Source: Bacillota bacterium
Lineage (GTDB): Bacteria; Bacillota_I; Bacilli_A; RF39; UBA660
Assembly (NCBI GenBank): GCA_023430885.1
Contig: JAEYYH010000026.1
Coordinates: 19,599-83,598 of the forward strand
DNA: 64,000 bases
Direction of reading: 5' to 3'
Made by a program: the position numbers and the translations under genes. Within the stretch, counting starts at the first letter, position 1; each line of letters begins with the position of its first letter. This document shows positions 1,383 through 62,369 of this stretch, piece by piece. A model generated the notes under the pieces. That model was not told the origin of the DNA. It saw nothing but the letters and a program-made list of their open reading frames with translations, and ran no database searches.

Positions 1383-1407
1383 AATTTAATATAAAATTTA
1401 CTAGACT

Positions 1408-4400: not shown

Positions 4401-4422
4401 GTATATATATTTATTGGATTAA
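1408..4422 (+). CDS. Conjugation-associated cell-wall hydrolase: N-terminal Gly/Ala-rich low-complexity region, one TM segment, SpoIID/LytB-like domain and C-terminal CHAP domain. Likely true start is ATG 1423 after RBS GGTGGTGAT
   Basis: TM segment ISPALPFIGGAIVTILVVVMVMAEIMVI. SpoIID-like stretch LKDYVIGVVYREIGASIKDNAEYLKANIIAAKSFTV. CHAP Cys in GQCVWYVKGRAQE and His in GHSLIVEEV. Position between VirB4 and T4CP is typical of Gram-positive conjugation hydrolases. Confidence 0.7.
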   Translation: MVVMVMDENNNVNENSGVDKKALEKQHTEQNTKKALQVAEKGAATYFAGPEGAAAVNALHNAPVVGKALNKVEDKAVEKLGKNKNIANLANKLGDSGVTDAADKGLDAVGAAGGGGAAAGASGAAKAGGATAGASSSATSAAKGINDGLGKLPAGLNGSGGSNSPNGPGGGFGGGDDELSPSQRTVQAVKKTGKILKMISPALPFIGGAIVTILVVVMVMAEIMVIRDKIVGVINEVLKTEQRLTNFVTGDGWRTEDEAFFYKLKVAYNDFKSTTNSDKPLDIPLIAATIHYSKVTDMNNWDGAEGEHEDDIGKNEDNYSDSEDTGIGSSIVETYKTWSFYQMANVKLGNYTLTPGQRGLLGHLVHTEIEWHKICILDAPAKWAEFFSDLFGFKSLQENLELNDGKVGSALLDEISQFLQLSPIGMITGFADLFKDIQAFADQDSSALEWWSANFVYEAREFIEYLSGNFNDERLVNTPYSYYNNLEGSGTKVDGTSVGKPAQSVYDESQNYSSASTGKTTDDDGTCILNFPYPKVVRSMDYKGYYRYLVNVYIPLTYYRGLEVDKDYSFLEVVQTANAIFDQKYLYEYLVGEDTQNLASGCDYNFSGSSSTTVSVDKNMIDNLYVNVMSGSCGSVKNCTNIEETVSLKDYVIGVVYREIGASIKDNAEYLKANIIAAKSFTVGRRTASQSGDKYYINMINSTNDQVYCSVTKGCMEASSNKKPAPSAELLEYLGKLYDEVYNDFLYNSSSSSFTGYYRAKESQCIGSDIAGACLGQNESQEMGDAGKKYEAILGYFYVDPIGMVDISTGNFSVGVMQCISSGLKLGTDGYYMRTTKPDPTNIYFNPPYVSNSNRGQCVWYVKGRAQEIIANSIADASKKETAKNAIQATNGNGNQWFTEELQKVFGSSTDYRLPKVGSIAVYTWTDSHCAQYWGGTCRENYGHSLIVEEVNGNNVTTSEGYTKCSTGSPGWECPIFFNGHYTIEQMKDLGGNYKFIGYIYLLD

Positions 4423-4432
4423 GGAGGATATA

Positions 4433-5098
4433 ATGAATAAAAAGATATTAGTATTATTATTAATAACATTTATATTTTTCTTAACTGGTTGCGATGCCAA
4501 ATATGAGATGGAAATAAAAAACAATAAAATAACTGAAAATATTTCTGTCTCTATACCTAGTAAATATACAGAAAAGGAAATTAATGAAAATATTGATTAT
4601 TTTGGCATAAATTCTGATTCTGCTTATAATCAAAAAATTGAAAAAAAAGATAATGAGAGTATTATTTCACTTAGTGGAAAAAAATCAAAGATTGATGATT
4701 TTTTTAATAATAGTGATAGTTTTGTAAATAAATGTTATAATAAGGTTAGTTTTGTACTAGAGGATGGCAAATATTATATAGGGACATCAAAAGGATTTAA
4801 ATGTTTAACTTATGAATACATGGAATTAGATAGTCTTACTATAAACATTAAAACTTATCATAAAGTGTATGATAATAATGCTGACAAGGTAAGTAACAAT
4901 GTGTATACGTGGATTATTAATAAAAACAATATTTCAACAAACAACATTTTATTTGTTGTAAGCAAGAATGAATATGTTTGGTATTATAGATATAGATATT
5001 TATTTGGCGGAATAGTAGCAGTATCTGTTATATTCTTAGTTACTTACATAGTTATTTCTATATTCAGAACAACTAGTAAGCGAGCAAATAAAATTTAG
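4433..5098 (+). CDS. Lipoprotein with C-terminal TM anchor (T4SS-associated, function unknown). The ORF track starts at 4376, but RBS AAGGAGGA favours ATG 4433
   Basis: MNKKILVLLLITFIFFLTGC lipobox LTGC. C-terminal hydrophobic segment LFGGIVAVSVIFLVTYIVISIF. Confidence 0.5.
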   Translation: MNKKILVLLLITFIFFLTGCDAKYEMEIKNNKITENISVSIPSKYTEKEINENIDYFGINSDSAYNQKIEKKDNESIISLSGKKSKIDDFFNNSDSFVNKCYNKVSFVLEDGKYYIGTSKGFKCLTYEYMELDSLTINIKTYHKVYDNNADKVSNNVYTWIINKNNISTNNILFVVSKNEYVWYYRYRYLFGGIVAVSVIFLVTYIVISIFRTTSKRANKI

Positions 5099-5109
5099 GA
5101 GGTAAATAG

Positions 5110-36068: not shown

Positions 36069-36113
36069 TTCTTTTTTAATTGATATAATTTATATATGAT
36101 AGGATGCGATAGT

Positions 36114-38729
36114 ATGAATAAAAAGAAAGGTTTTACATTGGTAGAAATACTGGCTGTTGTAATAATACTTGGGGTTATAAGTATTATTGTTTATCCAGTT
36201 CTTAATAAAGTCTTAAAAGATAATAGAAAAAGAGCATTTGAGGCTAGTCTAAATGCAGTAGTTAGAGCAGCTGAATTATATAAAACAGATAATAATAATG
36301 TTTTGGGTATATTTGATTACGATGACGAAAATATTGATATAAGTAATCTAGGTAAATGGCAAGCAGGAACTTTAACTGATTCTGTTGATACTGATGGAAA
36401 TACAAAAATATATCTTACGGGATTTTATGATGGTGAATTTTGTGCCACTGGTTATGAAGGTAACTTCACAATAATTGAAGGAAAGTGTGTGGAAACACCT
36501 GAATTATGTTTCATTATGAAAAATAACGAAATTATACAATATGAATTTGACTATAGTGCATGTCCAACGAATGTTAATATTCCTACTAGCATTGATGGTC
36601 AGGATGTTTTATATATAGGCGAAGGTGTTTTTGAAAGTTCACCTATAGCTTCTGTAATTATTCCTAATAGTATTAAAGAAATTAGAGATAATGCTTTTAA
36701 TGATAGTGCCTTGACATCACTTGATTTGACTAATGCTACATCTCTTCAAATAATTGGTTCTGGGGCATTTGAATATACACACTTAACTAATGTAGATTTT
36801 ACCAATCTTACAAGTTTAGTAGAAATAAAAGGTGCGGCTTTTGAATATTCTGGACTAACAGGAACTTTAGATTTAACAAACTCTACAAATTTAACAAGGA
36901 TATGGCCATATTCATTTGAAGAAAATCAAATATCTTCAGTTAAATTAAGTGGTTTAACTCATCTTGAAAGAATTGGAGAATATGCTTTTGAAGAAAATAA
37001 TATAACAGGAGTTTTAGAATTAACAAACATGCCAGCATTAGTATCATTAGATGATGGTGCTTTTAGCAATAATAATATAACAAGTATTAATCTAACAAGC
37101 ACTAATGTTCTAGAAAGCATTGGTCAAAATGCTTTTGCATATAATGATATTACTAATATTAATGTAGATACAATTAATAATATAATGTGGTTAGGAGCAT
37201 ATGCTTTTGCATATAATGATTTAACTAGTTTCAGTTTAACGTTATTTCCAAATATCGATTATGTTTCAGCTGGTGTAGTTAATAATAATCAGCTATCTAA
37301 TAGTGAAGCCTTCATATATAATGTAGTTAATGGAACAATAGAGCCTAGTATTTTGATATCATACGGTGGTGCAAGTAGAAGTAATATTGTAATACCTAGC
37401 ACTGTAGTATCAATAGGTGAGAATACTTTTTATAGTCAGGGTATAACAAGTGTTGACTTTAGTCAGGCTACTGGATTAACAAATATTGATTATTATGCAT
37501 TCGCTTCCAATAATTTAACTACAATAACATTACCTAGTACGTTAATAGAAATAGGTCAATATGCATTTTCTGAAAATCAACTAGTTAGTATTACTATTCC
37601 AGAAAATACAACAACAATAGATGATTATGCATTTTACTCTAACAGATTAACTTCTGTAACATTACCCAGCACATTATTAGGAATAGGACAATATGCATTT
37701 GCTTACAATCAATTAGCTAATATTACTATTCCAGGTAATACAACAACAATAGAAAACTATGCATTTAAAAGTAATGCTACTTGGCAAACAATAACAATCT
37801 TATCTAATGGGGTAAATAGTACATTGAGATTTAATTATGTTTGGGCTGATATTGGTTGGCCAATGGAAAAAATTCCTACTGTAGAAGTATTATCAACTCT
37901 TTCTACAGCAGCCCAAAATAATTTTGATTTTCAAAATTTTACATATTATAAAGTTGCTGTACCAACAAGTGGGCAATACAAATTTGAGGTATGGGGAGCC
38001 CAAGGAGGTTGTAACAGTGGTGGCAAAGGTGGATATTCTACCGGCTTAGTACAATTAAATAGTGGAGATACCTTATATGTTTATGTTGGTGGTAAAGGTT
38101 TGTGTTCAAGCGAAACTAGTTCTAGTCTAATGGGGGGATTTAATGGTGGCGGATTTGCTTATAAAAATAGTTATACCGCTGGTTCTGGAGGCGGTGCTAC
38201 CGACATAAGAGTAACAACTAATTCATTATATGCCCGTGTGATTGTTGCCGGTGGCGGCGGTGGTTATAGTTCTGTTGGCGGTTATACTGGCGGTTTTGGT
38301 GGAGGTTTAGTAGGTGGTTCAACATATAACAATGCTACATTTTCAGCTGGTGGTGGAACTCAAATAAATGGTGGGGTAAATGGCTGTTATTCTAATGGAA
38401 ATGGTAAATTTGGATTTGGTGGTTCATACGGTTCTGCTTGTGGTTCACTTTGGGGATATCCAATTTCTGGTGGTGGATCAGGTTGGTATGGTGGTGGAAG
38501 CACCAGCATAAGTGCCGGCGGTGGTTCTGGTTGGATTTACACATCAACAGACTTTACAAATTGGCAATCAGGAAATGCAACAGATGCAGCACAATGGTTA
38601 TTAAATAGTTCATATTATTTATTAAGTGCACAAACAATTGCGGGTAATCTTGCAATTACTAATCCAGATGGTAGCAGTGTTACAGGTCATGCAGGTAATG
38701 GTTACGCCAGAATAACATTTATAGCTTAA
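36114..38729 (+). CDS. Modular type IV pilin: prepilin leader plus pilin domain, BspA-type leucine-rich repeats, C-terminal Gly-rich domain
   Basis: MNKKKG|FTLVEIL class III signal. Pilin D-region FCATGYEGNFTIIEGKC. More than 15 LRR_5-like repeats (L..IG..AF....LT.I). C-terminal 250 aa is Gly-rich and ends GNGYARITFIA. Confidence 0.65.
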   Translation: MNKKKGFTLVEILAVVIILGVISIIVYPVLNKVLKDNRKRAFEASLNAVVRAAELYKTDNNNVLGIFDYDDENIDISNLGKWQAGTLTDSVDTDGNTKIYLTGFYDGEFCATGYEGNFTIIEGKCVETPELCFIMKNNEIIQYEFDYSACPTNVNIPTSIDGQDVLYIGEGVFESSPIASVIIPNSIKEIRDNAFNDSALTSLDLTNATSLQIIGSGAFEYTHLTNVDFTNLTSLVEIKGAAFEYSGLTGTLDLTNSTNLTRIWPYSFEENQISSVKLSGLTHLERIGEYAFEENNITGVLELTNMPALVSLDDGAFSNNNITSINLTSTNVLESIGQNAFAYNDITNINVDTINNIMWLGAYAFAYNDLTSFSLTLFPNIDYVSAGVVNNNQLSNSEAFIYNVVNGTIEPSILISYGGASRSNIVIPSTVVSIGENTFYSQGITSVDFSQATGLTNIDYYAFASNNLTTITLPSTLIEIGQYAFSENQLVSITIPENTTTIDDYAFYSNRLTSVTLPSTLLGIGQYAFAYNQLANITIPGNTTTIENYAFKSNATWQTITILSNGVNSTLRFNYVWADIGWPMEKIPTVEVLSTLSTAAQNNFDFQNFTYYKVAVPTSGQYKFEVWGAQGGCNSGGKGGYSTGLVQLNSGDTLYVYVGGKGLCSSETSSSLMGGFNGGGFAYKNSYTAGSGGGATDIRVTTNSLYARVIVAGGGGGYSSVGGYTGGFGGGLVGGSTYNNATFSAGGGTQINGGVNGCYSNGNGKFGFGGSYGSACGSLWGYPISGGGSGWYGGGSTSISAGGGSGWIYTSTDFTNWQSGNATDAAQWLLNSSYYLLSAQTIAGNLAITNPDGSSVTGHAGNGYARITFIA

Positions 38730-41863: not shown

Positions 41864-43042
41864 ATGAAAGTATTATCAGTTAACGCAGGTAGTTCATCAT
41901 TAAAATTTCAAATGTATGAAATGCCAGAAGAAAAAGTTTTAATTTCAGGAGTATTCGAAAGAATAGGTATAGACGGAAGTTTTTATACAATTAAAATAAA
42001 TGGTGAAAAAATAAAGAAAGAAGTTTCTTTATCAAATCATAAAGTGGCTTTTGAAATTTTAGTTAAAGAATTATTAGATAATAAAGTAGTAGAAAATTTA
42101 GATGAAATAAAAGGTATTGGCCATAGGGTAGTTCAAGGTGGCGATTATTTTGATAAAACTGTAGTTGTTGATGAGGATGTTATTGCTAAAATAGATGAAT
42201 TATCATCTTTAGCACCACTTCATAATCCTGCTGCTATAACAGGTATTAAAGCAGCCCAAGCTGTAATTAAATATGCTGTTCAAACTGCTGTATTTGACAC
42301 TGCTTTTCATCAAACAATGGATGAAGTGAATTATATGTATGCTGTACCTTATTCATGGTATACAGATTATAAAATAAGAAGATATGGCGCTCATGGTACA
42401 AGTCATAAATATGTATCAGTTAGAATGAACGAGATATTGGGCAGATTAAATACAAAGCTAATTACATGTCATATTGGAAATGGTGCTAGTATAAGTGCAG
42501 TTTCTAATGGCAAATGTATTAATACATCAATGGGACTTACACCTAATGCTGGTTTAATAATGGGATCTCGTTGTGGTGATATAGATGCTACTATAGTTCC
42601 ATATATAATGAATAAAACTGGAATGACACCTAATGAAGTAGACACTGCTTTAAATAAGCAAAGCGGTTTACTTGGAATAAGTGGAGTTAGTAGTGATTCT
42701 AGAGATGTTGAAGCAGGAATAAATGATGGAAATGATAGATGTTTACTTGCTCAAAAAATGTATGTTAGAAGAGTAATTGATTATATTGCCAAATACTATG
42801 TTGAGCTTGGTGGAGCAGATGCCATTGTATTTACAGCTGGAGTTGGTGAAAATTCAATTAGTACTAGAAGAGAAATTATGGATGGTTTAAAAGTTTTAGG
42901 AGTAGAAGTAGATGAAGAAGCAAATGAAACTCGTGGACAAGAAATAATGATTAGTACAAAAGAATCAAAAATTCCATGTTATGTAATACCAACTGATGAA
43001 GAGGTAATGATTGCAAGAGACACATATGATTTTATAAAATAG
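41864..43042 (+). CDS. ackA: Acetate kinase
   Basis: MKVLSVNAGSSSLKFQ, HLGNG, VHGGG-like motifs. Confidence 0.92.
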   Translation: MKVLSVNAGSSSLKFQMYEMPEEKVLISGVFERIGIDGSFYTIKINGEKIKKEVSLSNHKVAFEILVKELLDNKVVENLDEIKGIGHRVVQGGDYFDKTVVVDEDVIAKIDELSSLAPLHNPAAITGIKAAQAVIKYAVQTAVFDTAFHQTMDEVNYMYAVPYSWYTDYKIRRYGAHGTSHKYVSVRMNEILGRLNTKLITCHIGNGASISAVSNGKCINTSMGLTPNAGLIMGSRCGDIDATIVPYIMNKTGMTPNEVDTALNKQSGLLGISGVSSDSRDVEAGINDGNDRCLLAQKMYVRRVIDYIAKYYVELGGADAIVFTAGVGENSISTRREIMDGLKVLGVEVDEEANETRGQEIMISTKESKIPCYVIPTDEEVMIARDTYDFIK

Positions 43043-44101: not shown

Positions 44102-45718
44102 ATGAAAAACAAAGTTATTAATGAAAAAAAACAAAGCAACATTGTAATAAATCTTATTATTACAATAGTTTCAGCCTTAGTTATATATTTCTTCTTTTTA
44201 CCTGCACTTAATCTAAGTAGTATAGGTTTTTGGATATATATAATAATTATAATAGGTATTTTTACAGTCCTAGGATTAATTCCTAATGTTGACTCAAAGG
44301 GAAGATTGACTGGTAGTATGAAATCATTATCAATTTGTGGTATAACAATAGTTACTATATTCGTAGGAATATTTTTAATTAATTTTATATTATCACCATT
44401 ATTTTCTTCAAAGAAATATTCAGAGCGTATTTCTGTAAATGAAGATGGTAATTTTTTAGAAGATATAGAATTAGTAGATTTTAATACTTTACCACTTCTT
44501 GATAAAGATTCAAGTCAAAAATTAGGCGACAGAGTTATGGGGCAGATGCCTGAATTAGTATCACAATTTTATGTATCTGATTTATATACTCAGATAAACT
44601 ATAATGATGATATAGTTAGAGTTACTCCACTTGAATATAATGGGTTCTTTAAGTATTTAGCAAATCATAAAAATGGTGTTACTGGATATATTACAGTTAA
44701 TTCTGTAACTGGAGCATCAGAACTTACTAAATTAGATAAAGGTATGAAATATATGCCTTCAGCTATTTTAATGGAAAATCTTAATAGAAAACTAAGATTC
44801 AGTTATCCAACAAAAATATTTGGTGAAAAAACATTTGAACTTGATAATGATGGTAATCCATATTGGATAGTACCTTCTATAAAGTATTCTGGTATCGAAC
44901 TTCTTGAAGAAGTAGAGGGTGTTATAATTTTAGACCCGATAACTGGTAAGTCTGATTATTATGATGTAAAAGATGTTCCGACTTGGGTAGATCATGTTTA
45001 TAGTGCAGATCTAATTGTTGAACAATTAGATGACTGGGGACAATATAAAGATGGATTTTTAAATAGTGTGTTTGGTCAAAAGAATGTTACTATGACAACT
45101 GATGGTTATAACTATATGGTTATGAATGATGATGTATATTTATATACTGGTATCACTTCAGTTGCAAGTGACGAATCAAATCTAGGATTTATTTTAACAA
45201 ATATGCGTACAAAAGAAACAATTTTTTATCCAGTACCAGGTGCTGAAGAATTTAGTGCTATGGCAAGTGCTGAAGGACAAGTACAACAAATGAAATATAC
45301 AGCTTCATTCCCATTATTAATTAATTTAAATGGAAAAGCTACGTATTTATTATCTTTAAAAGATGATGCTGGACTTGTAAAAATGTATGCTTTTGTAGAT
45401 GTAGCTGATTATCAAAAGGTTGTTGTTACAGATGCTTCAGAAGGTATAGAAAAGGCTGCACAAAATTATTTGGGCGAATCTTCTATAGAGGTAGATGAGG
45501 ATACACTTACAACAAAAGAGATAACAGTAAGCAGTGTTACAACTGCTATAATCAATGGCTATACATATTACTATATAACAGACACAGCTAATCAAAAATA
45601 TATGGTATCAATAACAGCTAACAAAGAATTATTACCATTTGTAGGTAAGGATACAAAAGTAACTGTTTCATATCAAAAAACTGATGCAAATGTTATAACT
45701 TTAACAAAGATTAAATAA
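44102..45718 (+). CDS. Membrane protein with 3-4 N-terminal TM helices and ~400-aa extracellular domain (hypothetical); start ATG 44102
   Basis: Hydrophobic N-terminus, no recognisable catalytic motif. Confidence 0.45.
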   Translation: MKNKVINEKKQSNIVINLIITIVSALVIYFFFLPALNLSSIGFWIYIIIIIGIFTVLGLIPNVDSKGRLTGSMKSLSICGITIVTIFVGIFLINFILSPLFSSKKYSERISVNEDGNFLEDIELVDFNTLPLLDKDSSQKLGDRVMGQMPELVSQFYVSDLYTQINYNDDIVRVTPLEYNGFFKYLANHKNGVTGYITVNSVTGASELTKLDKGMKYMPSAILMENLNRKLRFSYPTKIFGEKTFELDNDGNPYWIVPSIKYSGIELLEEVEGVIILDPITGKSDYYDVKDVPTWVDHVYSADLIVEQLDDWGQYKDGFLNSVFGQKNVTMTTDGYNYMVMNDDVYLYTGITSVASDESNLGFILTNMRTKETIFYPVPGAEEFSAMASAEGQVQQMKYTASFPLLINLNGKATYLLSLKDDAGLVKMYAFVDVADYQKVVVTDASEGIEKAAQNYLGESSIEVDEDTLTTKEITVSSVTTAIINGYTYYYITDTANQKYMVSITANKELLPFVGKDTKVTVSYQKTDANVITLTKIK

Positions 45719-45721
45719 ATA

Positions 45722-45748
45722 AAAAAGACTTAATTAAGTCTTTTTTTG
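45722..45748. terminator. Bidirectional terminator (AAGACTTAATTAAGTCTT palindrome with A/T runs)
   Basis: Perfect palindrome read in sequence. Confidence 0.55.
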
Positions 45749-46003
45749 TTTATACATTTTTTCTTCAATAGAACTACCTAGATATGATCCAATCATTGCA
45801 CCTAGACAAAAAAAGAAAATTTTATATGGATTACTATCAACGTTTATAAGAACCATACTGGTACTTAATATCCAAATTAAAGATATTAATCCATTTAATA
45901 TAGCCCCAGTCATCTTCTTGTTTTTCGCAATAACAATTATCCTAACTGTACCAAGCATATTTTCAATAATTTTATTAATAAATATAATTAAACATATAAT
46001 CAT
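45734..46003 (-). CDS. Small two-TM membrane protein (hypothetical)
   Basis: 89-aa ORF with two hydrophobic segments; weak support. Confidence 0.3.
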   Translation of the reverse strand: MIICLIIFINKIIENMLGTVRIIVIAKNKKMTGAILNGLISLIWILSTSMVLINVDSNPYKIFFFCLGAMIGSYLGSSIEEKMYKQKKT

Positions 46004-46160
46004 ACAATCACCATTCTATTATGTACTTATATAATAAATCTTAACCATAGTAATTGCATATTTGAAATATTTTATATAATATACTTCTATTTAATGAATG
46101 ACTTCTTTTTATTATAGAAAACTTTTATAATGTACATAATAAAATAATAGGAGGAATTGT

Positions 46161-46559
46161 ATGAAAATAATTAATAAAGAGTCAGTAACTTACAAAAAAG
46201 GTTTTACGCTAATAGAATTAATTGCTGTAATTTTATTAATAGGCATAATTTCATTAATAACAGTGCCAACAGTATCAAATATAATACAAGAATCAAAAGA
46301 AAAAGCTTTTAAAGCACAAGCAATATATATATTTGAAGCTACGATGATATATTTATATGATAATGATTATGCTGATATACCATCAGAGGGACTTGATGTC
46401 ACTATAATAAATAGTATAGATCCAAATCCTTTTATAACCGGATATGTATTTAGAAATGCCAGTGGTAAATTTGAAATCGCTTATGTAAGTGATGGAAATT
46501 ATTGTGCAAATGGTGAAAAAAATAATTTAGTAATAACAAGAGGAACTTGTGATGTATAA
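46161..46559 (+). CDS. Minimal type IV (pseudo)pilin with prepilin cleavage/methylation signal
   Basis: YKKG|FTLIELIAVILLIGIISLITVP. D-region DGNYCANGEKNNLVITRGTC. Confidence 0.7.
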   Translation: MKIINKESVTYKKGFTLIELIAVILLIGIISLITVPTVSNIIQESKEKAFKAQAIYIFEATMIYLYDNDYADIPSEGLDVTIINSIDPNPFITGYVFRNASGKFEIAYVSDGNYCANGEKNNLVITRGTCDV

Positions 46560-46827
46560 AGCTTGATAAAATTCCATTATATTTGTGATTTCAAATTTTG
46601 TATGTTGTGTATTGCCTTCCATAATTTCCCATACTTTAAACAAAATATGTACATAATTATGTAATATACTTATAACAGTGGAGGTGATAAGAGAAAAATA
46701 ATAACAAACAAATATTAAAAATAATAATGTAAAACTTAAAATAAAATAATACACTCTAAAATATAAACGAAATGAAGGTGATAGATTAAAGAATAAAAAA
46801 ATGATATACTACTAATGAGGTGTTAAA

Positions 46828-47487
46828 ATGTATAAAATTTGTTTAGTAGAAGATGAAATCAATTTAAATAACCTTATTAAGAATTATTTAGAACATGAAA
46901 ATTATGAAGTAGTCCAAAAGTTTAGTGGAAATGAAGCTATAAATTATGTAGGGACAGAAAATATTGATCTATGGATTCTTGATATAATGCTTGGCGATGA
47001 TATAAGTGGTTATGATATAATCAAAAAAATAAGAGAAAAATCTCCTTTAGTTCCTGTGATATTTACATCAGCACGTGATCAAGATTTAGATAAAATAATT
47101 GGTCTAGAACTTGGAAGTGATGATTATGTTACAAAACCATATTCTCCTAAAGAGTTAGTTCTTAGAGTAAATAAGTTAATTGGTAGAGTTTATAATAAGG
47201 TTGAAGAAAAACTTAGATATGAAAATTATGAAATAGATGCTACAAAAAGAGAAGTCGTTGCTAGCGGCAAAGAAGTAAAATTAACAACACTTGAATTTGA
47301 TTTATTGATGTTATTTATTAACAACAAAAACAAATCTTTTAGTAGAGAAGAAGTATTAACCAGTGTATGGGGGACAGATTATTTTGGAAGTGATAGGGTA
47401 GTTGATGACTTAGTAAGAAGACTAAGAAAAAAAATGCCTAATATGCGTATAAATACTTTGTATGGATATGGATATAGATTATCATGA
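46828..47487 (+). CDS. OmpR-family response regulator
   Basis: Receiver Asp in ILDIMLGD. Winged-helix C-terminus LTTLEFDLL...GYGYRL. Confidence 0.85.
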   Translation: MYKICLVEDEINLNNLIKNYLEHENYEVVQKFSGNEAINYVGTENIDLWILDIMLGDDISGYDIIKKIREKSPLVPVIFTSARDQDLDKIIGLELGSDDYVTKPYSPKELVLRVNKLIGRVYNKVEEKLRYENYEIDATKREVVASGKEVKLTTLEFDLLMLFINNKNKSFSREEVLTSVWGTDYFGSDRVVDDLVRRLRKKMPNMRINTLYGYGYRLS

Positions 47488-48749
47488 TAAAAAAATTCAA
47501 TTTGTCTAAACAATTACTATGTATAGTAATTGTAATATTTGGAGTAATAACTGTTGCAATAGGATATTTACTTCCTAAAGTATTACTACCAGTTTATGAA
47601 AGTAATATATATACAATTTTAAAGCAACCATTAGAATTTATGAACGATACTAACTTTGACGATTATGAATTTAATTCAGATATCGCTTATTTATATATAA
47701 CAAACGAAGGAAAAGTAATAGAGTCAACAAACTTAATCAATGTTATTAAAATATCTACTGAACAATTAATTAAAAGAATAGATAGTCAGTCTGGTAACTT
47801 TACTTATCTAGGCAGTAAATATTACTATATTGCTGAAACAGATAATTATGTTACAAAGATAGCTATAACTAATGATAATTATATAATAACAATAAAAGAG
47901 GAAATAATTGACACCATATTTCCTATACTACTCTTCACGCTATTAATAATAGTTGGACTTGTGTTATTGTGGTCTCAACTATTAATAAAAAAAATTGAAC
48001 GACTAAAAGAAAAAATAGATAATTTAGATAATGATAATTATACAGACAGGTTTAATTACTATTTCGATGATGAACTTAAATCTTTATCAATATCCATCGA
48101 TGATATGAAAGATACCCTAAAAGAACAAGAAGAATATAAAAATCAAATGTATCAAAATATATCGCATGATTTTAAAACACCACTTACTGTAATAAAATCA
48201 TATATAGAAGGTATGGAAGATGGTATTCAAGATAAAGATGAAGGTGCTAGAATCATCAGCGAACAGGTAAACAAATTAGAATTAAAAGTACACTCCTTAC
48301 TATATTTAAATAAATTAAATTATATAAAAGATTTAGACAATTATAAACATGAAACTACAGATGTCTCTCGGGTTATAACAGAATCTGTAGAAAAGTTTAA
48401 AATACAAAGGCCAGATGTTGAATGGGAAGTTAATATCATTGATAAAAAAAGTGATTTTAAAGGAACTTTTGATATGTGGGAAGCTATTATTGATAATTTA
48501 CTAAATAATTTTGTTCGCTATGCCGAAAAAAATATAAAAATAATTATTAAAAACAATAAAATAACCTTATATAACGATGGACCTAACATCGACCCTAATA
48601 TACTAAACGATATTTTTACTCCGTATAAAAAAGGTATAAAAGGACAATTTGGTTTGGGCTTATCAATAGTAAAGAAAACTATAATGCTTTTTGGTTATGA
48701 AATAACCGTTCATAACGAAAAGAAAGGAATTAGTTTTATAATTAAATAA
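47484..48749 (+). CDS. Sensor histidine kinase with ~120-aa extracytoplasmic sensor domain
   Basis: Two TM segments. H-box ISHDFKTPLT. HATPase N/G boxes (LLNNFVRYA, GLGLSIVK). Confidence 0.85.
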   Translation: MIKKFNLSKQLLCIVIVIFGVITVAIGYLLPKVLLPVYESNIYTILKQPLEFMNDTNFDDYEFNSDIAYLYITNEGKVIESTNLINVIKISTEQLIKRIDSQSGNFTYLGSKYYYIAETDNYVTKIAITNDNYIITIKEEIIDTIFPILLFTLLIIVGLVLLWSQLLIKKIERLKEKIDNLDNDNYTDRFNYYFDDELKSLSISIDDMKDTLKEQEEYKNQMYQNISHDFKTPLTVIKSYIEGMEDGIQDKDEGARIISEQVNKLELKVHSLLYLNKLNYIKDLDNYKHETTDVSRVITESVEKFKIQRPDVEWEVNIIDKKSDFKGTFDMWEAIIDNLLNNFVRYAEKNIKIIIKNNKITLYNDGPNIDPNILNDIFTPYKKGIKGQFGLGLSIVKKTIMLFGYEITVHNEKKGISFIIK

Positions 48750-48808
48750 AAGTAACGTAAGTTACTTTTTTTTATGTTATAATTATATTAAGATAGAGGA
48801 GAATTAAA

Positions 48809-49291
48809 ATGCAAAAGTTAGATTTAAATAAAAAAAAATATGAAGTAGAAATACCTAAAGAAGAAGTTACAAAAAAGAAACCCGTATTGTATAACGTTAT
48901 TTTGATTATCGTTTTAGTTACTCTTATTTGTTTGTTTACATTTTTATTTAAAAAATATACAAACAAAGAGGCTTTAGCTACTCTTGAAAGTAGAGTTAAC
49001 ATGACTATAAATTTAGCACGTGAGGTAGTAGATGATGAAAGTTATACAGAAGATTATCTGTTAATAAAGTTCCCTGATACTGAAGAAATTATTACTAAAG
49101 ATGGGAAAATGAATTTTAATAATAAAGAATTAGAAGAATTTTCAAATGGCTATATTATTGTTTATAAAGATAGTTCAATAGCTTTTAAGCTAAGTGATGG
49201 TGAATACTGTGCTTCTAAATCATATAATGATGCGTCATATAAGTTATTTATATTTGGTAATTGTTCTAATTATGACGTTGAATATAAATAG
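48809..49291 (+). CDS. Membrane-anchored pilin-domain-like protein (no prepilin signal), paralog 1
   Basis: Cytoplasmic K-rich N-terminus, one TM. C-terminal DGEYCASKSYNDASYKLFIFGNC matches the pilin D-region pattern of the 46161 protein. Confidence 0.5.
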   Translation: MQKLDLNKKKYEVEIPKEEVTKKKPVLYNVILIIVLVTLICLFTFLFKKYTNKEALATLESRVNMTINLAREVVDDESYTEDYLLIKFPDTEEIITKDGKMNFNNKELEEFSNGYIIVYKDSSIAFKLSDGEYCASKSYNDASYKLFIFGNCSNYDVEYK

Positions 49292-49305
49292 GGTGATTTT
49301 GTAAT

Positions 49306-49797
49306 ATGAAAACACACGAAACAACAATTCATGTTTATGATTATGGAAAGAAAAAGCGCAAACATCATAATGCAAAACTAAAAATATCAAATATCTTAAA
49401 AATAGTATTACCGTTACTAGTACTTATATTTGCAGCATTTTGTATATATAAATATTCTAATAAAGATAAAATTAAAGAAATAGATAAAAAAATTGCTATG
49501 TCAATTGAATTAATGCAAAATGTTGTAAAAGATAAAAGCTTTGATGGCGATTATTTATTAGTAACATTTCCAGATAATTCAAAAGTTGTATCAAACGACG
49601 GTTATATAATTAATAATATAGGTTCTTCATATAAAGAGTTTGATGCAGGTTACATTATATTATATAAAGATGGAACATATAAATTCGAATTACAAGATAC
49701 TGGATATTGTGCTACAAAAGATATTTATGATAAAAAATATCAGTTATTGATATTTAAAAAATGTTCAAGTAAAGAAGTTGATTACTTAAAAAAATAA
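49306..49797 (+). CDS. Membrane-anchored pilin-domain-like protein, paralog 2 (tandem duplicate)
   Basis: Same architecture. DTGYCATKDIYDKKYQLLIFKKC. Shares LL(I/V)(K/T)FPD and GYII(V/L)YKD with paralog 1. Confidence 0.5.
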   Translation: MKTHETTIHVYDYGKKKRKHHNAKLKISNILKIVLPLLVLIFAAFCIYKYSNKDKIKEIDKKIAMSIELMQNVVKDKSFDGDYLLVTFPDNSKVVSNDGYIINNIGSSYKEFDAGYIILYKDGTYKFELQDTGYCATKDIYDKKYQLLIFKKCSSKEVDYLKK

Positions 49798-49810
49798 AAC
49801 AATAGTTTAT

Positions 49811-50752
49811 CTATTGTTTTATTTTGTCTCCTTGATAAATATCTTTTTTAACCATGGCTTTATCTATTTCATTTAGAACTCCAAACTTTTTTATTAACCA
49901 TTCTGGTTCTACTAAATCGCTAGCTTTAGGATCACCAGTAATTCTATTAATAACTATTTCTGGTCGTAAATATTCAAGTTGTTCACATACTATATCAACA
50001 TACTCTTCTTTGGATAAGACGTGAAAATGCTCTTTCTTATACAAATTGGCAAGTTCTGTATTTTTTAATATATGTAGCATATGTATTTTTATTCCTTGGA
50101 TATCTAAGTTATTCAGATATTTAATGGTATCTATCATCATTTCTCTTGTCTCATATGGAAGTCCATTGATAATATGTACAACAACATTTATATTACGACT
50201 TCTTAACTTTTCCACCATATAATTAAAACATTCAAGAGTATGACAACGATTTATTAACAATGAAGTCTTTTCATGAATGGTTTGAAGTCCTAATTCCACA
50301 GTTAAGTATGTTTTTTTACTTAGCTTTTCTAAATAATCCACACATTCATCAGTTATAGCATCAGGACGTGTTGCAATTGAAAGACCAACAACATTTTTTT
50401 GTTTTAAAATAAGTTCGTATTTTTCTTTTAAAACATCAAGTGGCGCATATGTATTAGTGTTGGCTTGAAAATATCCGATATATTTACTATTTGGCCATTT
50501 CTTAGACATAATTTCTTTGACATCTTCAAATTGTTTTAGCAAGTTATCATTAACATTACCTGCATAATCGCCACTACCAAGACTAGAACAATATATACAA
50601 CCTTTAGTTCCTACTTTACCATCCCTGTTAGGACAAGTAAAACCTGCATTTAAACTTACTTTAAATATTTTGGAATTAAATTTATGTTTATAAAAGTAAT
50701 CTAAAGTGTGATATCTTTTATTAGAATCACTATATTTAAACAAATTTTTCAT
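49811..50752 (-). CDS. Radical SAM protein, TIGR01212 (YhcC-like) family
   Basis: CPNRDGKVGTKGCIYC Cys cluster. About 313 aa with the family's C-terminal domain. Confidence 0.75.
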   Translation of the reverse strand: MKNLFKYSDSNKRYHTLDYFYKHKFNSKIFKVSLNAGFTCPNRDGKVGTKGCIYCSSLGSGDYAGNVNDNLLKQFEDVKEIMSKKWPNSKYIGYFQANTNTYAPLDVLKEKYELILKQKNVVGLSIATRPDAITDECVDYLEKLSKKTYLTVELGLQTIHEKTSLLINRCHTLECFNYMVEKLRSRNINVVVHIINGLPYETREMMIDTIKYLNNLDIQGIKIHMLHILKNTELANLYKKEHFHVLSKEEYVDIVCEQLEYLRPEIVINRITGDPKASDLVEPEWLIKKFGVLNEIDKAMVKKDIYQGDKIKQ

Positions 50753-60320: not shown

Positions 60321-62369
60321 ATGAAAAATAAAAAAGGATTCACGCTTGTAGAGTTAATTGCAATAATAATTGTTATTGGAATAATTATTGGAATTATAGC
60401 GCCTACTGCAATTAAACTTATAGAGAAATCCAAGGTTAATTCTTTTAGAGAAGGTTTAAGAAGTATAATACGATCAGCGGAAATTTATATGGAAGAAAAT
60501 GATTTGAAAACTCTTCCAGAAGATGGAATATATTTACAAGATAACGATCTTGATATTGATTATGCGGATGGTTATAGTGGAATAATAAAATATATAAATG
60601 GAGAAATTGTATTACAAAATATAGGTAACGGGACATATTGTGGTAGTGGCAGTAAAGATACTTTATCTGTATCTGGTTTTACTGAAGATTGTGTAGTGGT
60701 CAAACCTGAGCCTCAGTGCTACTTGATGGGAACCACTGATACTACAGGTGATACTATCATTGGGTACGATTATGAAAAAGAAGATTGTAGTTCTATGGAA
60801 TTATCAATTCCAGCGACAGTTAATGAAGTGCCTGTTAAATATATTGCAGATGGAGCATTTTTAGATTCTTATGAATATGTACTTGGTGTAGGTTACTATG
60901 ACACTACTCCATTAGGTGGTCCAGGTCTTTTTCCAGTAATTGAACTTTTAGATAATTTATCTTATATGGGTGTGACTCCTTTTGAAACAATCTATATGAA
61001 TACTCTTCCGCAAATGCCAAAATTCTGTCTTACAACTTCTATGGAAGAAGCAACGGTTCCAATAAATTATATGATGTCATCAGGTGGATACGTTTTTTGC
61101 AATTTTGAAATGTATGATGATCTTTCTTCTTATCAAGCACATGGTATTGGTATAACAAAAGTAGATTTTAGTAATGCAACTAATTTGGTTAAAATTGGTA
61201 ATTCAGCTTTTTCTTATAATTTTATAACAGGGGCAATGGATTTAAGTGGTGCCACTAAATTAACAGAAATAGCTTCAAATGCCTTTGGTTATAATCAAAT
61301 AGAATCTATAAAGTTACCTAGTAGTCTTGTTACAATAGGAAGTTCTGCTTTTGTAGGTAATCAAATACAAACAATATCAATACCTTCTTCAGTTACAACA
61401 ATTGGCGATTATGCTTTTGAAGATAATAATTGGAATAGCGTTACTATTGGATCAAACTCAACTAATAAAGAAGATAGATTTAATGATAGTTGGGAAGTTA
61501 TCGGCTGGCCTTTGGAAATAATGCCAGAAGAATCTATTTCTGATCCTATTGATTATACATTAACGACGTCAACAAACACATTTGATTATATAAAAGGTTA
61601 TTATATTGTAAATGTTCAAACAAGTGGTAATTATAAATTAGAAGTTTGGGGCGGTTCCGGTTCAAATGGTGCTTCAAATGATCCTTCTGCATATGCATAT
61701 CCAAGTTATAGCGGTGGCTATACATCAGGTACAGTATATCTTTCTGCAGGAACAAAAATATATGTATACGTTGGTGGCGCAGGAAATGATATAAAAGGTG
61801 GATATAATGGAGGTGGAAACTCCATTTCACCAGATGGCGATTGTGAAGACAATGGCGCTGGCGGTGGCGCTACTGACATAAGATTAGTTGGTGGAGATTG
61901 GAATGCTCAATCAAGTTTATTGTCAAGGATTATTGTGGCTGGCGGTGGCGGCGGCGGTAGAGTAACCGCGCCATCTACAAATGCTGGTACTGAAATAGGA
62001 TTGGCTGGATCACAAACACAATCTGGAGTGGCAACGGATACTGAAAATTCTTGGAATGATAGTATAACTTGCGATATTGCTGGAGGTTTTGGTTTTGGTG
62101 GCTCAGAAAATTCGTCAGATGATAATCCCGGCGGTGGCGGAGGCTGGTATGGTGGATGTTCAGGCTATGATGCTATGGGTGGTGGTGGTTCTAACTACGC
62201 ACTTACTAGCGAATCAGTAAAACCATCAGGATATACCCCAACTAGTACTTACTATTTGTCTAACATTGTATCAACAGCTGGTAATGCTTCAATGCCAACT
62301 TATGATGGTCTTAGTACAATGACTGGAAATATAGGCAATGGCTATGCCAAAATAACTTATATTGGATAA
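60321..62369 (+). CDS. Modular type IV pilin paralog: prepilin leader plus pilin domain, short LRR block, C-terminal Gly-rich domain
   Basis: MKNKKG|FTLVELIAIIIVIGI. D-region GNGTYCGSGSKDTLSVSGFTEDC. LRR_5-type repeats. Gly-rich C-terminus with GGGATDIRL, RIIVAGGGGGG, ending GNGYAKITYIG. Confidence 0.65.
   Translation: MKNKKGFTLVELIAIIIVIGIIIGIIAPTAIKLIEKSKVNSFREGLRSIIRSAEIYMEENDLKTLPEDGIYLQDNDLDIDYADGYSGIIKYINGEIVLQNIGNGTYCGSGSKDTLSVSGFTEDCVVVKPEPQCYLMGTTDTTGDTIIGYDYEKEDCSSMELSIPATVNEVPVKYIADGAFLDSYEYVLGVGYYDTTPLGGPGLFPVIELLDNLSYMGVTPFETIYMNTLPQMPKFCLTTSMEEATVPINYMMSSGGYVFCNFEMYDDLSSYQAHGIGITKVDFSNATNLVKIGNSAFSYNFITGAMDLSGATKLTEIASNAFGYNQIESIKLPSSLVTIGSSAFVGNQIQTISIPSSVTTIGDYAFEDNNWNSVTIGSNSTNKEDRFNDSWEVIGWPLEIMPEESISDPIDYTLTTSTNTFDYIKGYYIVNVQTSGNYKLEVWGGSGSNGASNDPSAYAYPSYSGGYTSGTVYLSAGTKIYVYVGGAGNDIKGGYNGGGNSISPDGDCEDNGAGGGATDIRLVGGDWNAQSSLLSRIIVAGGGGGGRVTAPSTNAGTEIGLAGSQTQSGVATDTENSWNDSITCDIAGGFGFGGSENSSDDNPGGGGGWYGGCSGYDAMGGGGSNYALTSESVKPSGYTPTSTYYLSNIVSTAGNASMPTYDGLSTMTGNIGNGYAKITYIG

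Follow-up and report, generated by a model that had tools for sequence, protein, structure and literature searches.

Two questions are raised by the 5.7 kb analysed here. Does an interval holding a membrane protein, a pilin, a two-component system and two small tandem paralogs form one functional unit, and what role might the paralogs play? The interval lies within the 64-kb window, by which we mean the whole stretch of DNA that was analysed (64,000 nucleotides), from an uncultured, low-GC, sporulating Bacillota lineage, a bacterium that we describe as gut-type. It occupies a conserved chromosomal slot, extending from an nrnA-like DHH gene to a TIGR01212/YtqA-like radical-SAM gene, in which genes are arranged as a mosaic (Table 1). 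We consider it very probable that these are separate units and not one system. In the coherent core, a regulator of OmpR/PhoB type and its kinase precede one or two genes of a family of small bitopic proteins, whereas the genes for the 538-aa membrane protein and for DUF5698 are neighbours unrelated to this core.

Table 1. Features of the interval, in window coordinates (strand given as a point where a feature has none)
Feature	Position	Strand	Characteristics
538-aa polytopic membrane protein	44102..45718	+	Three N-terminal TM helices and a large extracytoplasmic domain
Bidirectional terminator hairpin, membrane-protein gene/convergent DUF5698 gene	45722..45748	.	-11.9 kcal/mol, z = -5.0
89-aa DUF5698 small membrane protein gene	45734..46003	-	Pfam PF18955, E = 3.4e-11
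Pilin cassette (approximate boundaries)	46026..46600	+	Indel of ~580 bp relative to sister lineage L006
132-aa type IV prepilin	46161..46559	+	Leader MKIINKESVTYKKG followed by FTLIEL (KKG/FTLIEL); C115 and C130
Conserved region 5' of the regulator gene	46609..46827	+	Strong conservation across genera
OmpR/PhoB-family response regulator, 219 aa	46828..47487	+	Response_reg E = 5.5e-24; Trans_reg_C E = 4.6e-21
Sensor histidine kinase, 421 aa	47484..48749	+	TM1, sensor, TM2, HAMP, HisKA, HATPase_c (Pfam)
Hairpin and T-run directly 3' of the kinase stop	48748..48773	+	-8.1 kcal/mol, z = -3.25
Extended -10 promoter-like TGTTATAAT	48775..48783	+	26 nt 5' of the paralog 1 start codon
Paralog 1, 160 aa	48809..49291	+	24-aa K-rich cytoplasmic tail, one TM helix
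Paralog 2, 163 aa	49306..49797	+	Architecture as paralog 1
Convergent terminator hairpin, paralog 2/minus-strand radical-SAM gene	49791..49825	.	-14 kcal/mol, z = -6.2

Architecture of the interval

Outside the pilin and two-component module stands the 538-aa membrane protein, one of a housekeeping family that is very widespread. It matches no Pfam or NCBIfam family, and at least 7892 homologues, 65-98% identical, are found in 'Bacilli' MAGs; in L008 and L010 its genomic contexts are unrelated to that of the window, being for example beside ribosomal protein operons. The initial annotation had placed all its genes in a same-strand array. Those that it listed do lie on the plus strand, but the DUF5698 gene, on the minus strand beside a bidirectional terminator, stands between the membrane protein and the pilin, so that the array is interrupted. 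This small gene, which that annotation had overlooked, is kept at 68-99% in L001, L003, L004, L006 and L015. Purifying selection acts on all genes of the interval (dN/dS 0.03-0.35), with values of 0.06-0.12 for the 538-aa protein, 0.04-0.06 for the regulator, 0.03-0.08 for the kinase and 0.07-0.29 for paralog 2.

The 132-aa protein had been correctly recognized as a prepilin and matches both Pfam N_methyl (E=5e-6) and TIGR02532 (E=3e-7). Its cassette is found only in the clade of the window and has been independently acquired or lost. Absence of the pilin was judged on the sister lineage L006, the L020-L022 loci stopping short upstream. There, the interval from the DUF5698 gene to the regulator is intact, the pilin ORF is absent and the two blocks flanking the cassette (46006-46025 and from ~46611 onward) are both kept, ~25-30 nt apart; the two-component system is 79-82% identical. 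The suggestion that this system regulates the pilin finds no support in co-conservation, since the pilin is a discrete indel, missing where the two-component system and a paralog persist. Likewise, the idea of a single 5.7-kb cluster had to be abandoned, as the membrane protein is a widespread family and the pilin a clade-only indel. No terminator was detected 3' of the pilin gene, and the pilin transcript may therefore run into the leader of the two-component operon. Three proteins with a prepilin signal are encoded in the 64-kb window, the 132-aa prepilin among them, and no pilus machinery gene was found there; neither the window nor the related loci examined contained a PilB/PilC/PilD/PilM-like gene.

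Both genes of the two-component system had been correctly identified, although the sensing domain, originally put at ~120 aa, is an extracytoplasmic stretch of ~100-110 aa between TM helices at residues ~4-38 and 139-172. The kinase gene overlaps the regulator gene by 4 bp (ATGA), and the regulator reaches no NCBIfam equivalog cut-off. Assignment of the kinase to WalK was considered and rejected (NCBIfam WalK score of 75 against a cut-off of 725; PAS domain absent). The conserved region 5' of the regulator gene, its putative regulatory region, contains phased CATAATT/CATACTT boxes at 46620-46636, a pair with one exact match in the window, together with SD-like GGAGGTGAT repeats, an ACACTC block that is complementary to the SD of the regulator gene and, immediately 5' of this SD, an extended -10-like TGATATACT. 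It matches no Rfam family.

The hairpin that follows the kinase gene is a putative terminator or attenuator-like element. An equivalent hairpin with another stem sequence is present in L006 (-7.2 kcal/mol, z = -3.9); a stricter G+C-based terminator scan did not call the one in the window. The promoter-like element downstream, recognized by consensus match alone, is kept as TGTTATAAT in the window, L015, L003 and L004, its counterparts being TGCTATAAT in L001, still fitting TGnTATAAT, and TGTTATACT in L006. With this hairpin, its T-run and a separate promoter-like element intervening, the kinase gene and paralog 1 may not be co-transcribed.

The paralogs and their likeness to the pilin

The two tandem paralogs represent a real, unannotated family restricted to one lineage. 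Their description as related proteins of 160 and 163 aa (38% identical, E=3e-30), with a K-rich cytoplasmic N-terminus, one TM helix (residues ~22-52) and an outer domain, was confirmed. In paralog 1, the helix continues to residue ~74 and is followed by a six-stranded beta domain in which C134 and C152 are invariant, and the cytoplasmic tail of paralog 2 bears the conserved motif ME[TN]S.AT[IV]..YDYG. The sole family member in L006 is an orthologue of paralog 2.

The ectodomains of the paralogs resemble the pilin beyond chance, as the initial annotation had noticed for their C-terminal region. BLASTP of this region against the pilin gave E=3e-4 and 3e-3, and hhalign between the paralog and pilin families gave a probability of 93.7% (E=1.9e-7), or of 90-92% (E ~1e-6) with the ectodomains only. 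The real hhalign score of 37.9 lies ~11 sd above those of 200 column-shuffled controls (mean 11.2, sd 2.4, maximum 24.5). Detectable homology is concentrated in ~34 residues (F..GYI-hairpin-DG.YCA) and excludes the TM helix, but the alignment spans 74-80 columns, stalk helix included, when those columns are offered. The structure prediction called for by the initial annotation points the same way: in both proteins AF2 places a 50-residue N-terminal helix before a beta-sheet, with the same order of secondary-structure elements, the last 20 residues of the model, including the second Cys, being of low confidence. The Cys-x(10-12)-Cys spacing previously proposed proved incorrect, the intervening residues numbering 14 in the pilin (C115-C130) and 17 in paralog 1 (C134-C152). 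Outside the locus, a profile search run exhaustively over 1.84 billion representatives recovered no canonical prepilin at E<=1e-3, and Foldseek against the PDB gave no significant match. As read from sequence comparison and modelling, the paralogs carry as their ectodomain a diverged alpha/beta domain that is type-IV-pilin-like and shares ancestry with the globular domain of the prepilin encoded 2 kb upstream.

Neither paralog matches N_methyl or TIGR02532, while the pilin does, and in an alignment of 19 family members neither Gly(-1) nor Glu(+5) is conserved in the TM region. In the absence of the class III signal (Gly-1, Phe+1, Glu+5), the proteins would be neither processed by a prepilin peptidase nor polymerised and would stay in the membrane, in agreement with the earlier prediction that they are tethered rather than cleaved. 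We regard the paralogs as probably pilin-like, uncleaved and membrane-anchored.

Possible roles of the paralogs

The explanation that we favour, with a confidence somewhat short of even, combines a mosaic slot, an uncleaved pilin-like bitopic family and a role as kinase partner. This last part, in which the paralogs are membrane partners or co-sensors of the adjacent kinase, is offered as a tentative suggestion. Family members are predicted to be bitopic, with the cytoplasmic tail at the N-terminus (N-in), a single TM helix and a domain on the outside (C-out), and the paralogs would remain in the membrane as co-sensors or modulators, contacting the kinase through the TM helix and the conserved tail, with the pilin-like ectodomain facing the cell wall. 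They could work as YycH/YycI do with WalK, or as the pools of pilin in the membrane that PilS and PleC sense. Their expression would come from their own extended -10 promoter and from read-through of the weak hairpin after the kinase gene, and the 132-aa prepilin is an independent cassette specific to the clade.

A family member is located 50-60 bp 3' of an orthologous kinase (67-99% identical) in four lineage types, namely that of the window, L006, L020/L021 and L022. The co-occurrence with two-component genes that the initial annotation proposed to look for was thus found in these four types, but not in a nested clade (L005, L018/L019) where the two-component system has been lost and one family member, overlapping or abutting the 538-aa protein gene, persists. 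The family must therefore be able to function without this kinase. This survival is one reason to ask whether the paralogs are instead ordinary envelope or surface proteins, for example adhesive or structural proteins facing the cell wall, without any signalling function, whose position reflects a historical accident of the slot or membership of the two-component system's regulon. Such a reading, which we judge rather unlikely, would also account for the paralogs' own promoter-like element and the hairpin after the kinase gene, and for their rapid evolution relative to their neighbours, a pattern typical of exposed proteins. Moreover, the family member is always convergent to the radical-SAM gene, the upstream gene being the kinase, the 538-aa protein or an IS3 transposase, and the hairpin module occurs twice in a 606-aa protein (P0029) from an unrelated context. 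Ectodomain co-evolution left no sign: between species with paralogs just 71-83% identical, the kinase sensor domain is conserved at 95%. In favour of a kinase partner, wherever a locus is linked to the two-component system, one or more of its members have a cytoplasmic tail that is conserved and at least 24 residues long, or a zinc ribbon (L021), features specific to such loci, whereas tails are of 10 residues or fewer in the two loci without it. The TM helix of paralog 1 is conserved at 78%, against 48-71% for the tail or stalk helix, beyond the needs of a passive anchor, and the adjacency with the kinase has been held across lineages with only 67% kinase identity.

It is improbable that the paralogs belong, as non-polymerising parts, to a type IV pilus machine or a Com-like one whose genes lie elsewhere in the genome. 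Here, uncleaved pilin-fold proteins would nucleate, anchor or cap filaments whose subunits would be the neighbouring pilin and the large surface proteins with prepilin signals, in the manner of FlaF/FlaG and of the 'baseplate' components evoked by the initial annotation. The homology to the adjacent pilin fits this scheme, as do the FlaF precedent and the three prepilin-signal proteins within 64 kb, which imply the existence of a prepilin peptidase and, probably, of an assembly system. However, besides the lack of PilB/PilC/PilD/PilM-like genes in the window and related loci examined, sister lineages possess paralogs with no pilin at the locus, and the paralog TM has no detectable similarity to pilin alpha1-N, which mediates filament packing, the hhalign match beginning only after it.

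Less credible still is a co-regulated pilus module covering the entire 5.7 kb, with the two-component system controlling the pilin and the membrane protein taking part. The proximity of the elements, the common strand of the genes initially listed, the possible entry of the pilin transcript into the two-component leader and an 11-mer (ATGTACATAAT) upstream of both the pilin and regulator genes could suggest one. Yet this 11-mer is AT-rich, the housekeeping membrane protein is set apart by its strong terminator and by a gene on the other strand, and L006 does without the pilin. The least likely reading of all is a superficial likeness, produced by convergence or local gene conversion in an unrelated small alpha+beta ectodomain sharing a short beta-hairpin-Cys motif: the restriction of most homology to 34 columns and the empty prepilin and Foldseek searches would fit, but the excess over shuffled controls, the extension of the alignment into the stalk helix and the identical order of elements in both models argue against it.

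Comparison with known systems

Like type IV pilins and pseudopilins (PF07963 N_methyl, TIGR02532), the paralogs have a long N-terminal helix, hydrophobic and embedded in the membrane over its first part, against which a C-terminal antiparallel beta-sheet packs. They have two conserved Cys near the C-terminus, and their ectodomain is detectably homologous to that of a genuine neighbouring prepilin. Unlike pilins, they carry a K-rich cytoplasmic tail of 24-30 residues instead of a short leader, lack Gly-1/Phe+1/Glu+5 and any N_methyl match, have TM helices that cannot be aligned with pilin alpha1-N and adjoin no assembly genes.

Gene order and topology match those of YycH/YycI (WalH/WalI), also tandem, mutually related bitopic proteins encoded directly 3' of a sensor kinase gene. 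No relationship by sequence or Pfam links the two pairs, the adjacent kinase is not WalK, and a hairpin and a promoter-like element part the paralogs from the kinase gene. YycH and YycI are also roughly two to three times larger than the 160-aa paralogs. They are accessory proteins encoded 3' of walK that modulate the kinase (PMC7355866, PMC5013275).

Precedents for a pilin-type membrane protein as kinase input come from Caulobacter crescentus, where the TM segment of PilA is sensed by PleC through intramembrane contacts (PMC7196804), and from Pseudomonas aeruginosa, where the TM segment of PilA is reported to be sensed by PilS in the passages citing Kilmury and Burrows 2016 (cited in PMC7196804, PMC6058289). 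In these cases the signal is a processed, polymerisable major pilin, whereas the candidate ligands here, permanently membrane-resident pilin-fold proteins beside a kinase, would be unable to polymerise. PilS has six TM helices and an NtrC-type regulator; the window kinase has two and an OmpR-type regulator, and its contact with the paralogs is a candidate one.

Finally, archaellum FlaF/FlaG (ArlF/ArlG) are, like the paralogs, monotopic membrane proteins whose N-terminal TM helix is not cleaved and whose beta-rich domain, a beta-sandwich in FlaF, resembles a filament subunit (PMC4425475). They remain membrane-bound within a type IV filament machine. They are archaeal and have a beta-sandwich fold, and no homology is expected; they lie inside the archaellum operon, whereas no filament operon is near the paralogs.

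Pilin homology of the tandem paralogs

Every element that the initial annotation had listed between 44.1 and 49.8 kb was recovered in the ORF list and the domain scans, in a window of ~29% G+C that also encodes PolC, SpoIVA and further products characteristic of spore-forming Bacillota. The 132-aa protein is a genuine prepilin, as had been claimed. It carries a class III signal (MKIINKESVTYKKG|FTLIELIAVILLIGIISLI), that is a short basic leader ending in Gly, Phe or Met at +1, Glu at +5 and a hydrophobic segment of ~20 residues, and it scores above the cut-offs of both PF07963 (E=5e-6, 26.3 bits vs 21.2) and TIGR02532 (29.9 bits vs 16.3). It falls in none of the named equivalogs tested (ComGC, GspG, PilA and others; GspG 32.9 bits vs 88.9, ComGC 31.4 vs 75), and its GspG and ComGC matches are restricted to the N-terminal helix. 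Judged by its sequence, this pilin belongs to the class III signal superfamily as an ordinary protein of that group, outside every named equivalog.

Features of the window and the evidence on which they rest
Feature	Position	Strand	Evidence or remark
Genes of a conjugative element	3-7929
877-aa protein with prepilin signal	36096-38729		KKG|FTLVEIL
AckA (acetate kinase)	41864-43042
538-aa membrane protein	44102-45718		ORF list and domain scans
Bidirectional hairpin	45722-45748		-11.9 kcal/mol; between DUF5698 and 538-aa protein genes; absent from the initial annotation
DUF5698 protein, 89 aa	45734-46003	minus	absent from the initial annotation
Pilin gene with upstream region	~46026-46600		intergenic DNA alignment
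Prepilin, 132 aa	46161-46559		KKG|FTLIEL; PF07963 and TIGR02532, both above cut-off
Putative conserved regulatory region	46609-46827		upstream of the regulator gene
Response regulator, OmpR/PhoB class	46828-47487		domain scans
Histidine kinase, TM-sensor-TM-HAMP-HisKA-HATPase_c	47484-48749		4-bp gene overlap with the regulator
Hairpin, 9-bp stem and T-run	48748-48773		-8.1 kcal/mol, z = -3.25; directly after the kinase stop codon
Extended -10 element TGnTATAAT, conserved	48775-48783		consensus match; 26 nt before the paralog-1 ATG
Paralog 1, 160 codons	48809-49291		ORF list
Paralog 2, 163 codons	49306-49797		ORF list
Strong convergent terminator	49791-49825		after paralog 2
CATAMTT-N3-CATAMTT site with one mismatch	50750		not conserved in relatives
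682-aa protein with prepilin signal	60321-62369		KKG|FTLVELI

The two tandem paralogs share 38% identity (E=3e-30). Both have the lysine-rich N-terminus and the one transmembrane (TM) helix first described for them, in the form of basic tails of 24-30 residues and one hydrophobic stretch each, spanning about residues 22-52. Since pairwise BLASTP of the pilin against each paralog was marginal (E=3e-4 and 3e-3), family alignments were built from 10 pilin orthologues and from 19 members of the paralog family, the latter gathered by a homologue search and by running a profile exhaustively with HMMER against 1.84 billion representatives. Compared with hhalign, the two families match with a probability of 93.7% (E=1.9e-7, 80 columns). 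The match begins past the TM helix and persists at 90-92% (E ~1e-6) when TM helix and stalk are removed; its core is a 34-residue segment consisting of F..GYI, a beta hairpin and DG.YCA. The real alignment scored 37.9, against 11.2 +/- 2.4 (maximum 24.5) for 200 column-shuffled controls, about 11 sd above the shuffles, and 15.2 for a reversed alignment. The proposed likeness of the C-terminal domain to pilin is thus borne out as homology.

The paralogs may also have a pilin fold, in which an extended alpha1 helix packs against an antiparallel beta-sheet. AlphaFold2 models paralog 1 (pLDDT 75 overall, >90 at residues 61-120) as a helix at residues 25-74 followed by six strands, and the pilin (pLDDT 73) as a helix at residues 17-67 followed by five strands, with the aligned segments sitting on equivalent strands. 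A Foldseek search of the paralog against the PDB returned no match, and the family profile run against PDB sequences gave only TM and coiled-coil noise. The cysteine spacing departs from the Cys-x(10-12)-Cys originally reported: the pilin has x14, the paralogs x17. Both cysteines (C134 and C152 in paralog 1) are invariant across the paralog family; C152 lies in a low-confidence part of the model, and the C-terminal disulfide loop (D-region) is a candidate only.

Neither paralog matches N_methyl or TIGR02532 at E<=0.1, and the TM region shows neither a conserved Gly nor a conserved Glu across the 19 family members, so that the Gly-1/Phe+1/Glu+5 pattern is lacking. This agrees with the earlier proposal that the paralogs are tethered and not cleaved. 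Because the class III signal is absent, we consider it quite probable that they are pilin-domain-like proteins anchored permanently in the membrane, N-in/C-out.

Neither Pfam nor NCBIfam, PHROGs or PADLOC gave a match for the paralog family. It is extremely narrow and confined to an uncultured lineage: word search yielded 10 clusters and the exhaustive search 14 clusters at 50% identity, and members occur in 2 of 185,579 GTDB species representatives. A weak profile match to P0034, a 3246-aa SprB-repeat protein, was judged a repeat artefact. Some members have unusual architectures. In a divergent lineage, the K-rich tail of the second member (L021, 1527-2027; P0033) is replaced by a cytoplasmic N-terminal zinc ribbon (CxxC-x12-CxxC), an architecture that recalls membrane-tethered regulators such as anti-sigma factors. 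The 606-aa protein P0029 (L023, 1284-3104) has two tandem GY[IA]V.T..G..AFEMTDG.YCA.K hairpin modules after an N-terminal KKGFTIMIF, which resembles a degenerate prepilin site in that Gly-Phe-Thr is kept and Glu+5 is not; this protein may represent an intermediate form linking prepilins to the anchored family.

Two further proteins of the window open with a prepilin signal and carry BspA-type LRR and ALK/LTK glycine-rich domains, bringing the class III-signal proteins in 64 kb to three; N_methyl+DUF285 proteins are also present in the related locus L008. Three such proteins in one window suggest that the signal is widely used for surface proteins in this lineage, which may display big modular proteins in this way.

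A variable locus among relatives

The locus was compared with 23 related loci. A conserved chromosomal slot, bounded by the DHH (nrnA-like) and 538-aa protein genes on one side and by a convergent radical-SAM gene on the other, varies in its content.

Content of the slot and of other loci encoding members of the paralog family (W, the window; L, related loci)
Type	Loci	Content
(a)	W, L001, L003, L004, L015; partial L002, L016	DUF5698 (minus strand), pilin, regulator, kinase, paralog 1, paralog 2
(b)	L006/L007	289-aa membrane protein, DUF5698 (minus strand), regulator, kinase, one paralog-2-type gene; pilin absent
(c)	L022	kinase and one paralog-1-type gene
(d)	L020/L021	regulator, kinase, two divergent members, the second with an N-terminal CxxC...CxxC zinc ribbon
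(e)	L005, L018/L019	no two-component system, no pilin; one short-tailed member overlapping or abutting the 538-aa protein gene
(f)	L017	IS3 transposase upstream of one family member
(g)	L023	606-aa protein with two hairpin modules, between ftsH and parAB

The 538-aa protein belongs to a family of at least 7892 members (65-98% identity) in 'Bacilli' MAGs, for which there is no Pfam or NCBIfam model. Elsewhere its gene adjoins ribosomal protein operons, sometimes lying between rpsR and rpsJ, or sugar-nucleotide genes, without pilin, two-component system (TCS) or paralog. With three TM helices and an extracytoplasmic domain of ~430 aa, it is a conserved housekeeping membrane protein, uncharacterised yet evidently important in the envelope. 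The pilin gene and its upstream region form a discrete indel, and the blocks that flank this cassette in the window are only ~25-30 nt apart in L006. In a neighbour-joining tree of the adjacent radical-SAM protein, a rough proxy (136 residues, midpoint root), the loci lacking the TCS nest inside the TCS-bearing clade. On the simplest reading, the kinase-plus-paralog arrangement would be ancestral, the TCS having been lost once and the family member kept. The radical-SAM gene itself was considered as a partner, for example in modifying a Cys-containing tail. It was rejected because it is a conserved housekeeping gene, similar to YtqA/TIGR01212, that lies on the other strand and is set off by a strong terminator.

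Comparison with three related genomes shows purifying selection on all genes, with dN/dS of 0.03-0.08 (TCS), 0.06-0.29 (paralogs) and 0.24-0.35 (pilin). Divergence of the pilin and the paralogs far outpaces that of the neighbouring genes: between the window and L001, the pilin is 70% identical and the paralogs are 71% and 83% identical, whereas kinase and regulator reach 96-98%. Against L001 and L003, paralog 1 has a dS of 1.3-1.4 and the kinase gene next to it one of 0.33-0.53. This difference, roughly two-and-a-half- to fourfold, is a hint that the paralog genes have recombined or represent old allelic lineages.

Other parts of the window have histories of their own. AckA is 69% identical to its orthologues in L001, L003 and L004 and 88% to that of the more distant L006, whereas the flanking LysRS and DHH proteins are 89-98% identical to theirs; this suggests a possible allelic replacement or recombination at ackA. 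The DUF5698 protein covers about half of the 180-200-aa UPF0316/PRK04164 models (positions 15-95 of 200) and lacks the DUF2179 half; its length is conserved in several genera, as a stand-alone half-size version. At the start of the window, a VirB4/TraG-like ATPase, a 1004-aa CHAP+SpoIID cell-wall hydrolase and a type IV coupling protein are the remnant or edge of a conjugative element.

The two-component system and its possible partners

The label 'OmpR/EnvZ-type' given to the TCS stands as a class label. The regulator has the domains of the OmpR/PhoB class (PF00072, E=5.5e-24; PF00486, E=4.6e-21) and the kinase matches PF00512 (E=1e-9), PF02518 (E=7.4e-13) and HAMP (E=2e-3). It does not stand as orthology: among NCBIfam equivalogs, OmpR (132 bits vs 331) and EnvZ (74 vs 415) remain below cut-off, and so do the best matches, PhoB (182 vs 270) and RstB (93 vs 478). 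WalK was ruled out (75 bits vs 725, no PAS domains). Since no equivalog cut-off is reached, the TCS is neither EnvZ/OmpR nor WalRK in the orthology sense; it is generic. PHROGs and PADLOC gave no match for the paralogs, the 538-aa protein or the kinase, and phage or defence roles are therefore not indicated.

Transcription signals were assigned by consensus match only. Because the post-kinase hairpin, which has an equivalent with a different stem sequence in L006, is followed by a conserved extended -10 element, the paralogs probably own a promoter, besides any read-through. No terminator-like structure was found 3' of the pilin gene. The ~220 bp upstream of the regulator gene are unusually conserved across genera, almost like coding sequence, when the window is compared with its equivalents in L001, L003, L004, L006 and L015. 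They contain CATAATT/CATACTT (CATAMTT) boxes 10 bp apart, a -10-like element TGATATACT, two SD-like GGAGGTGAT repeats ~92 bp apart and an invariant AATAATACACTCTAA block (ACACTC) that can pair with the SD of the regulator (GAGGTGT). RNAalifold recovers this pairing in the conserved leader, with no covariation, and an Rfam search of 45600-49900 gave nothing credible; we therefore go no further than a putative conserved regulatory region.

It is possible, and we propose it tentatively, that the paralogs would act as membrane partners, or co-sensors, of the adjacent kinase. The gaps are short (59 bp between kinase and paralog 1, 14 bp between the paralogs), and the position downstream of the kinase is kept in L001, L003, L004, L006, L015, L020/L021 and L022. 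Co-occurrence of the family with a TCS, the check proposed at the outset, holds beside orthologous kinases in four lineage types, and fails in L005 and L018/L019. These comparisons comprise about 8 locus types, collected via contigs encoding family members, because contig scans yielded few additional loci (two in genome contigs, two in metagenome contigs). The TM helix of paralog 1 is 78% conserved, against 48-71% for its tail and stalk, a pattern that paralog 2 does not show. Moreover, in each TCS-linked locus one or more members have either a cytoplasmic tail that is conserved and at least 24 residues long (M.KLDL.K..YE in the paralog-1 type, ME[TN]S.AT[IV]..YDYG in the paralog-2 type) or a zinc ribbon, and tails are of at most 10 residues in both TCS-less loci. 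With 4 loci against 2, this association of tail length with TCS linkage is only suggestive.

Other observations speak against a co-sensor role. One family member persists where the kinase is absent, a hairpin and a putative promoter lie between the kinase gene and the paralogs, and the rapid evolution of the paralog ectodomains is not matched by co-variation in the kinase sensor domain (95% identical to that of L001). The paralogs could instead be plain envelope proteins or members of the regulon, which we regard as slightly less likely than the co-sensor role. CATAMTT-N3-CATAMTT has a single exact site, upstream of the regulator gene, and its count is near chance (3 vs 0.78 expected; at least 3 in 5 of 100 shuffles) and supports no regulon inference. 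Improbable, in our opinion, is a role as non-cleaved part of a pilus machine whose genes lie elsewhere, similar to FlaF/FlaG (PMC4425475). The two other prepilin-signal proteins imply the existence of a prepilin peptidase; no gene for such a peptidase or for an assembly ATPase or platform lies within the 64-kb window. The single integrated pilus module of the initial annotation is very improbable, as one 5.7-kb cluster is contradicted by the unrelated contexts of the 538-aa protein, the variable slot content and the pilin indel. Least credible of all is a superficial, non-homologous resemblance to pilin, in view of the hhalign match and its shuffled controls.

Comparison with known kinase accessory proteins

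Returning to the co-sensor model, one can imagine that the paralogs are uncleavable, pilin-derived 'decoy pilins' recruited as dedicated co-receptors of the TCS kinase, although we find this rather unlikely. The TM helix and the conserved cytoplasmic tail would dock on the kinase, and the pilin-like ectodomain would sample either the cell wall or the pooled surface proteins that carry a prepilin signal. If true, 'decoy pilins' would be a previously undescribed class of kinase accessory protein in Gram-positive bacteria and a hard-wired version of the signalling logic that links pilin to PilS or PleC. The lineage is uncultured and without genetics, and the remainder of the proposed cluster is ordinary; the paralogs offer a tidy evolutionary observation and a testable, putative signalling role in an uncultured organism. 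Even without a role at the kinase, the family illustrates how a protein with a class III signal, once its processing site is lost, can live on as an anchor in the membrane.

Should the paralogs modulate the kinase, the pilin fold would be convertible into a permanent membrane signalling subunit, and a new family would join the short list of bitopic kinase accessory proteins. On this list are YycH and YycI, a pair of bitopic proteins related to each other, whose genes follow walK and which exert control over WalK (PMC7355866, PMC5013275). The paralogs are likewise bitopic, with one TM helix each, and encoded directly downstream of a kinase gene; unlike YycH and YycI, they have no Pfam match, and their neighbouring kinase remains at 75 bits against the WalK cut-off of 725. 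PleC and PilS both read membrane pilin pools via TM-helix contacts (PMC7196804). Modulation of the kinase by the paralogs would extend this reading of pilin pools, so far seen in two Proteobacteria, to Bacillota. No description of a pilin-like domain on a non-cleavable anchor beside a kinase was found in the families and literature compared; every ingredient of this arrangement has precedents.
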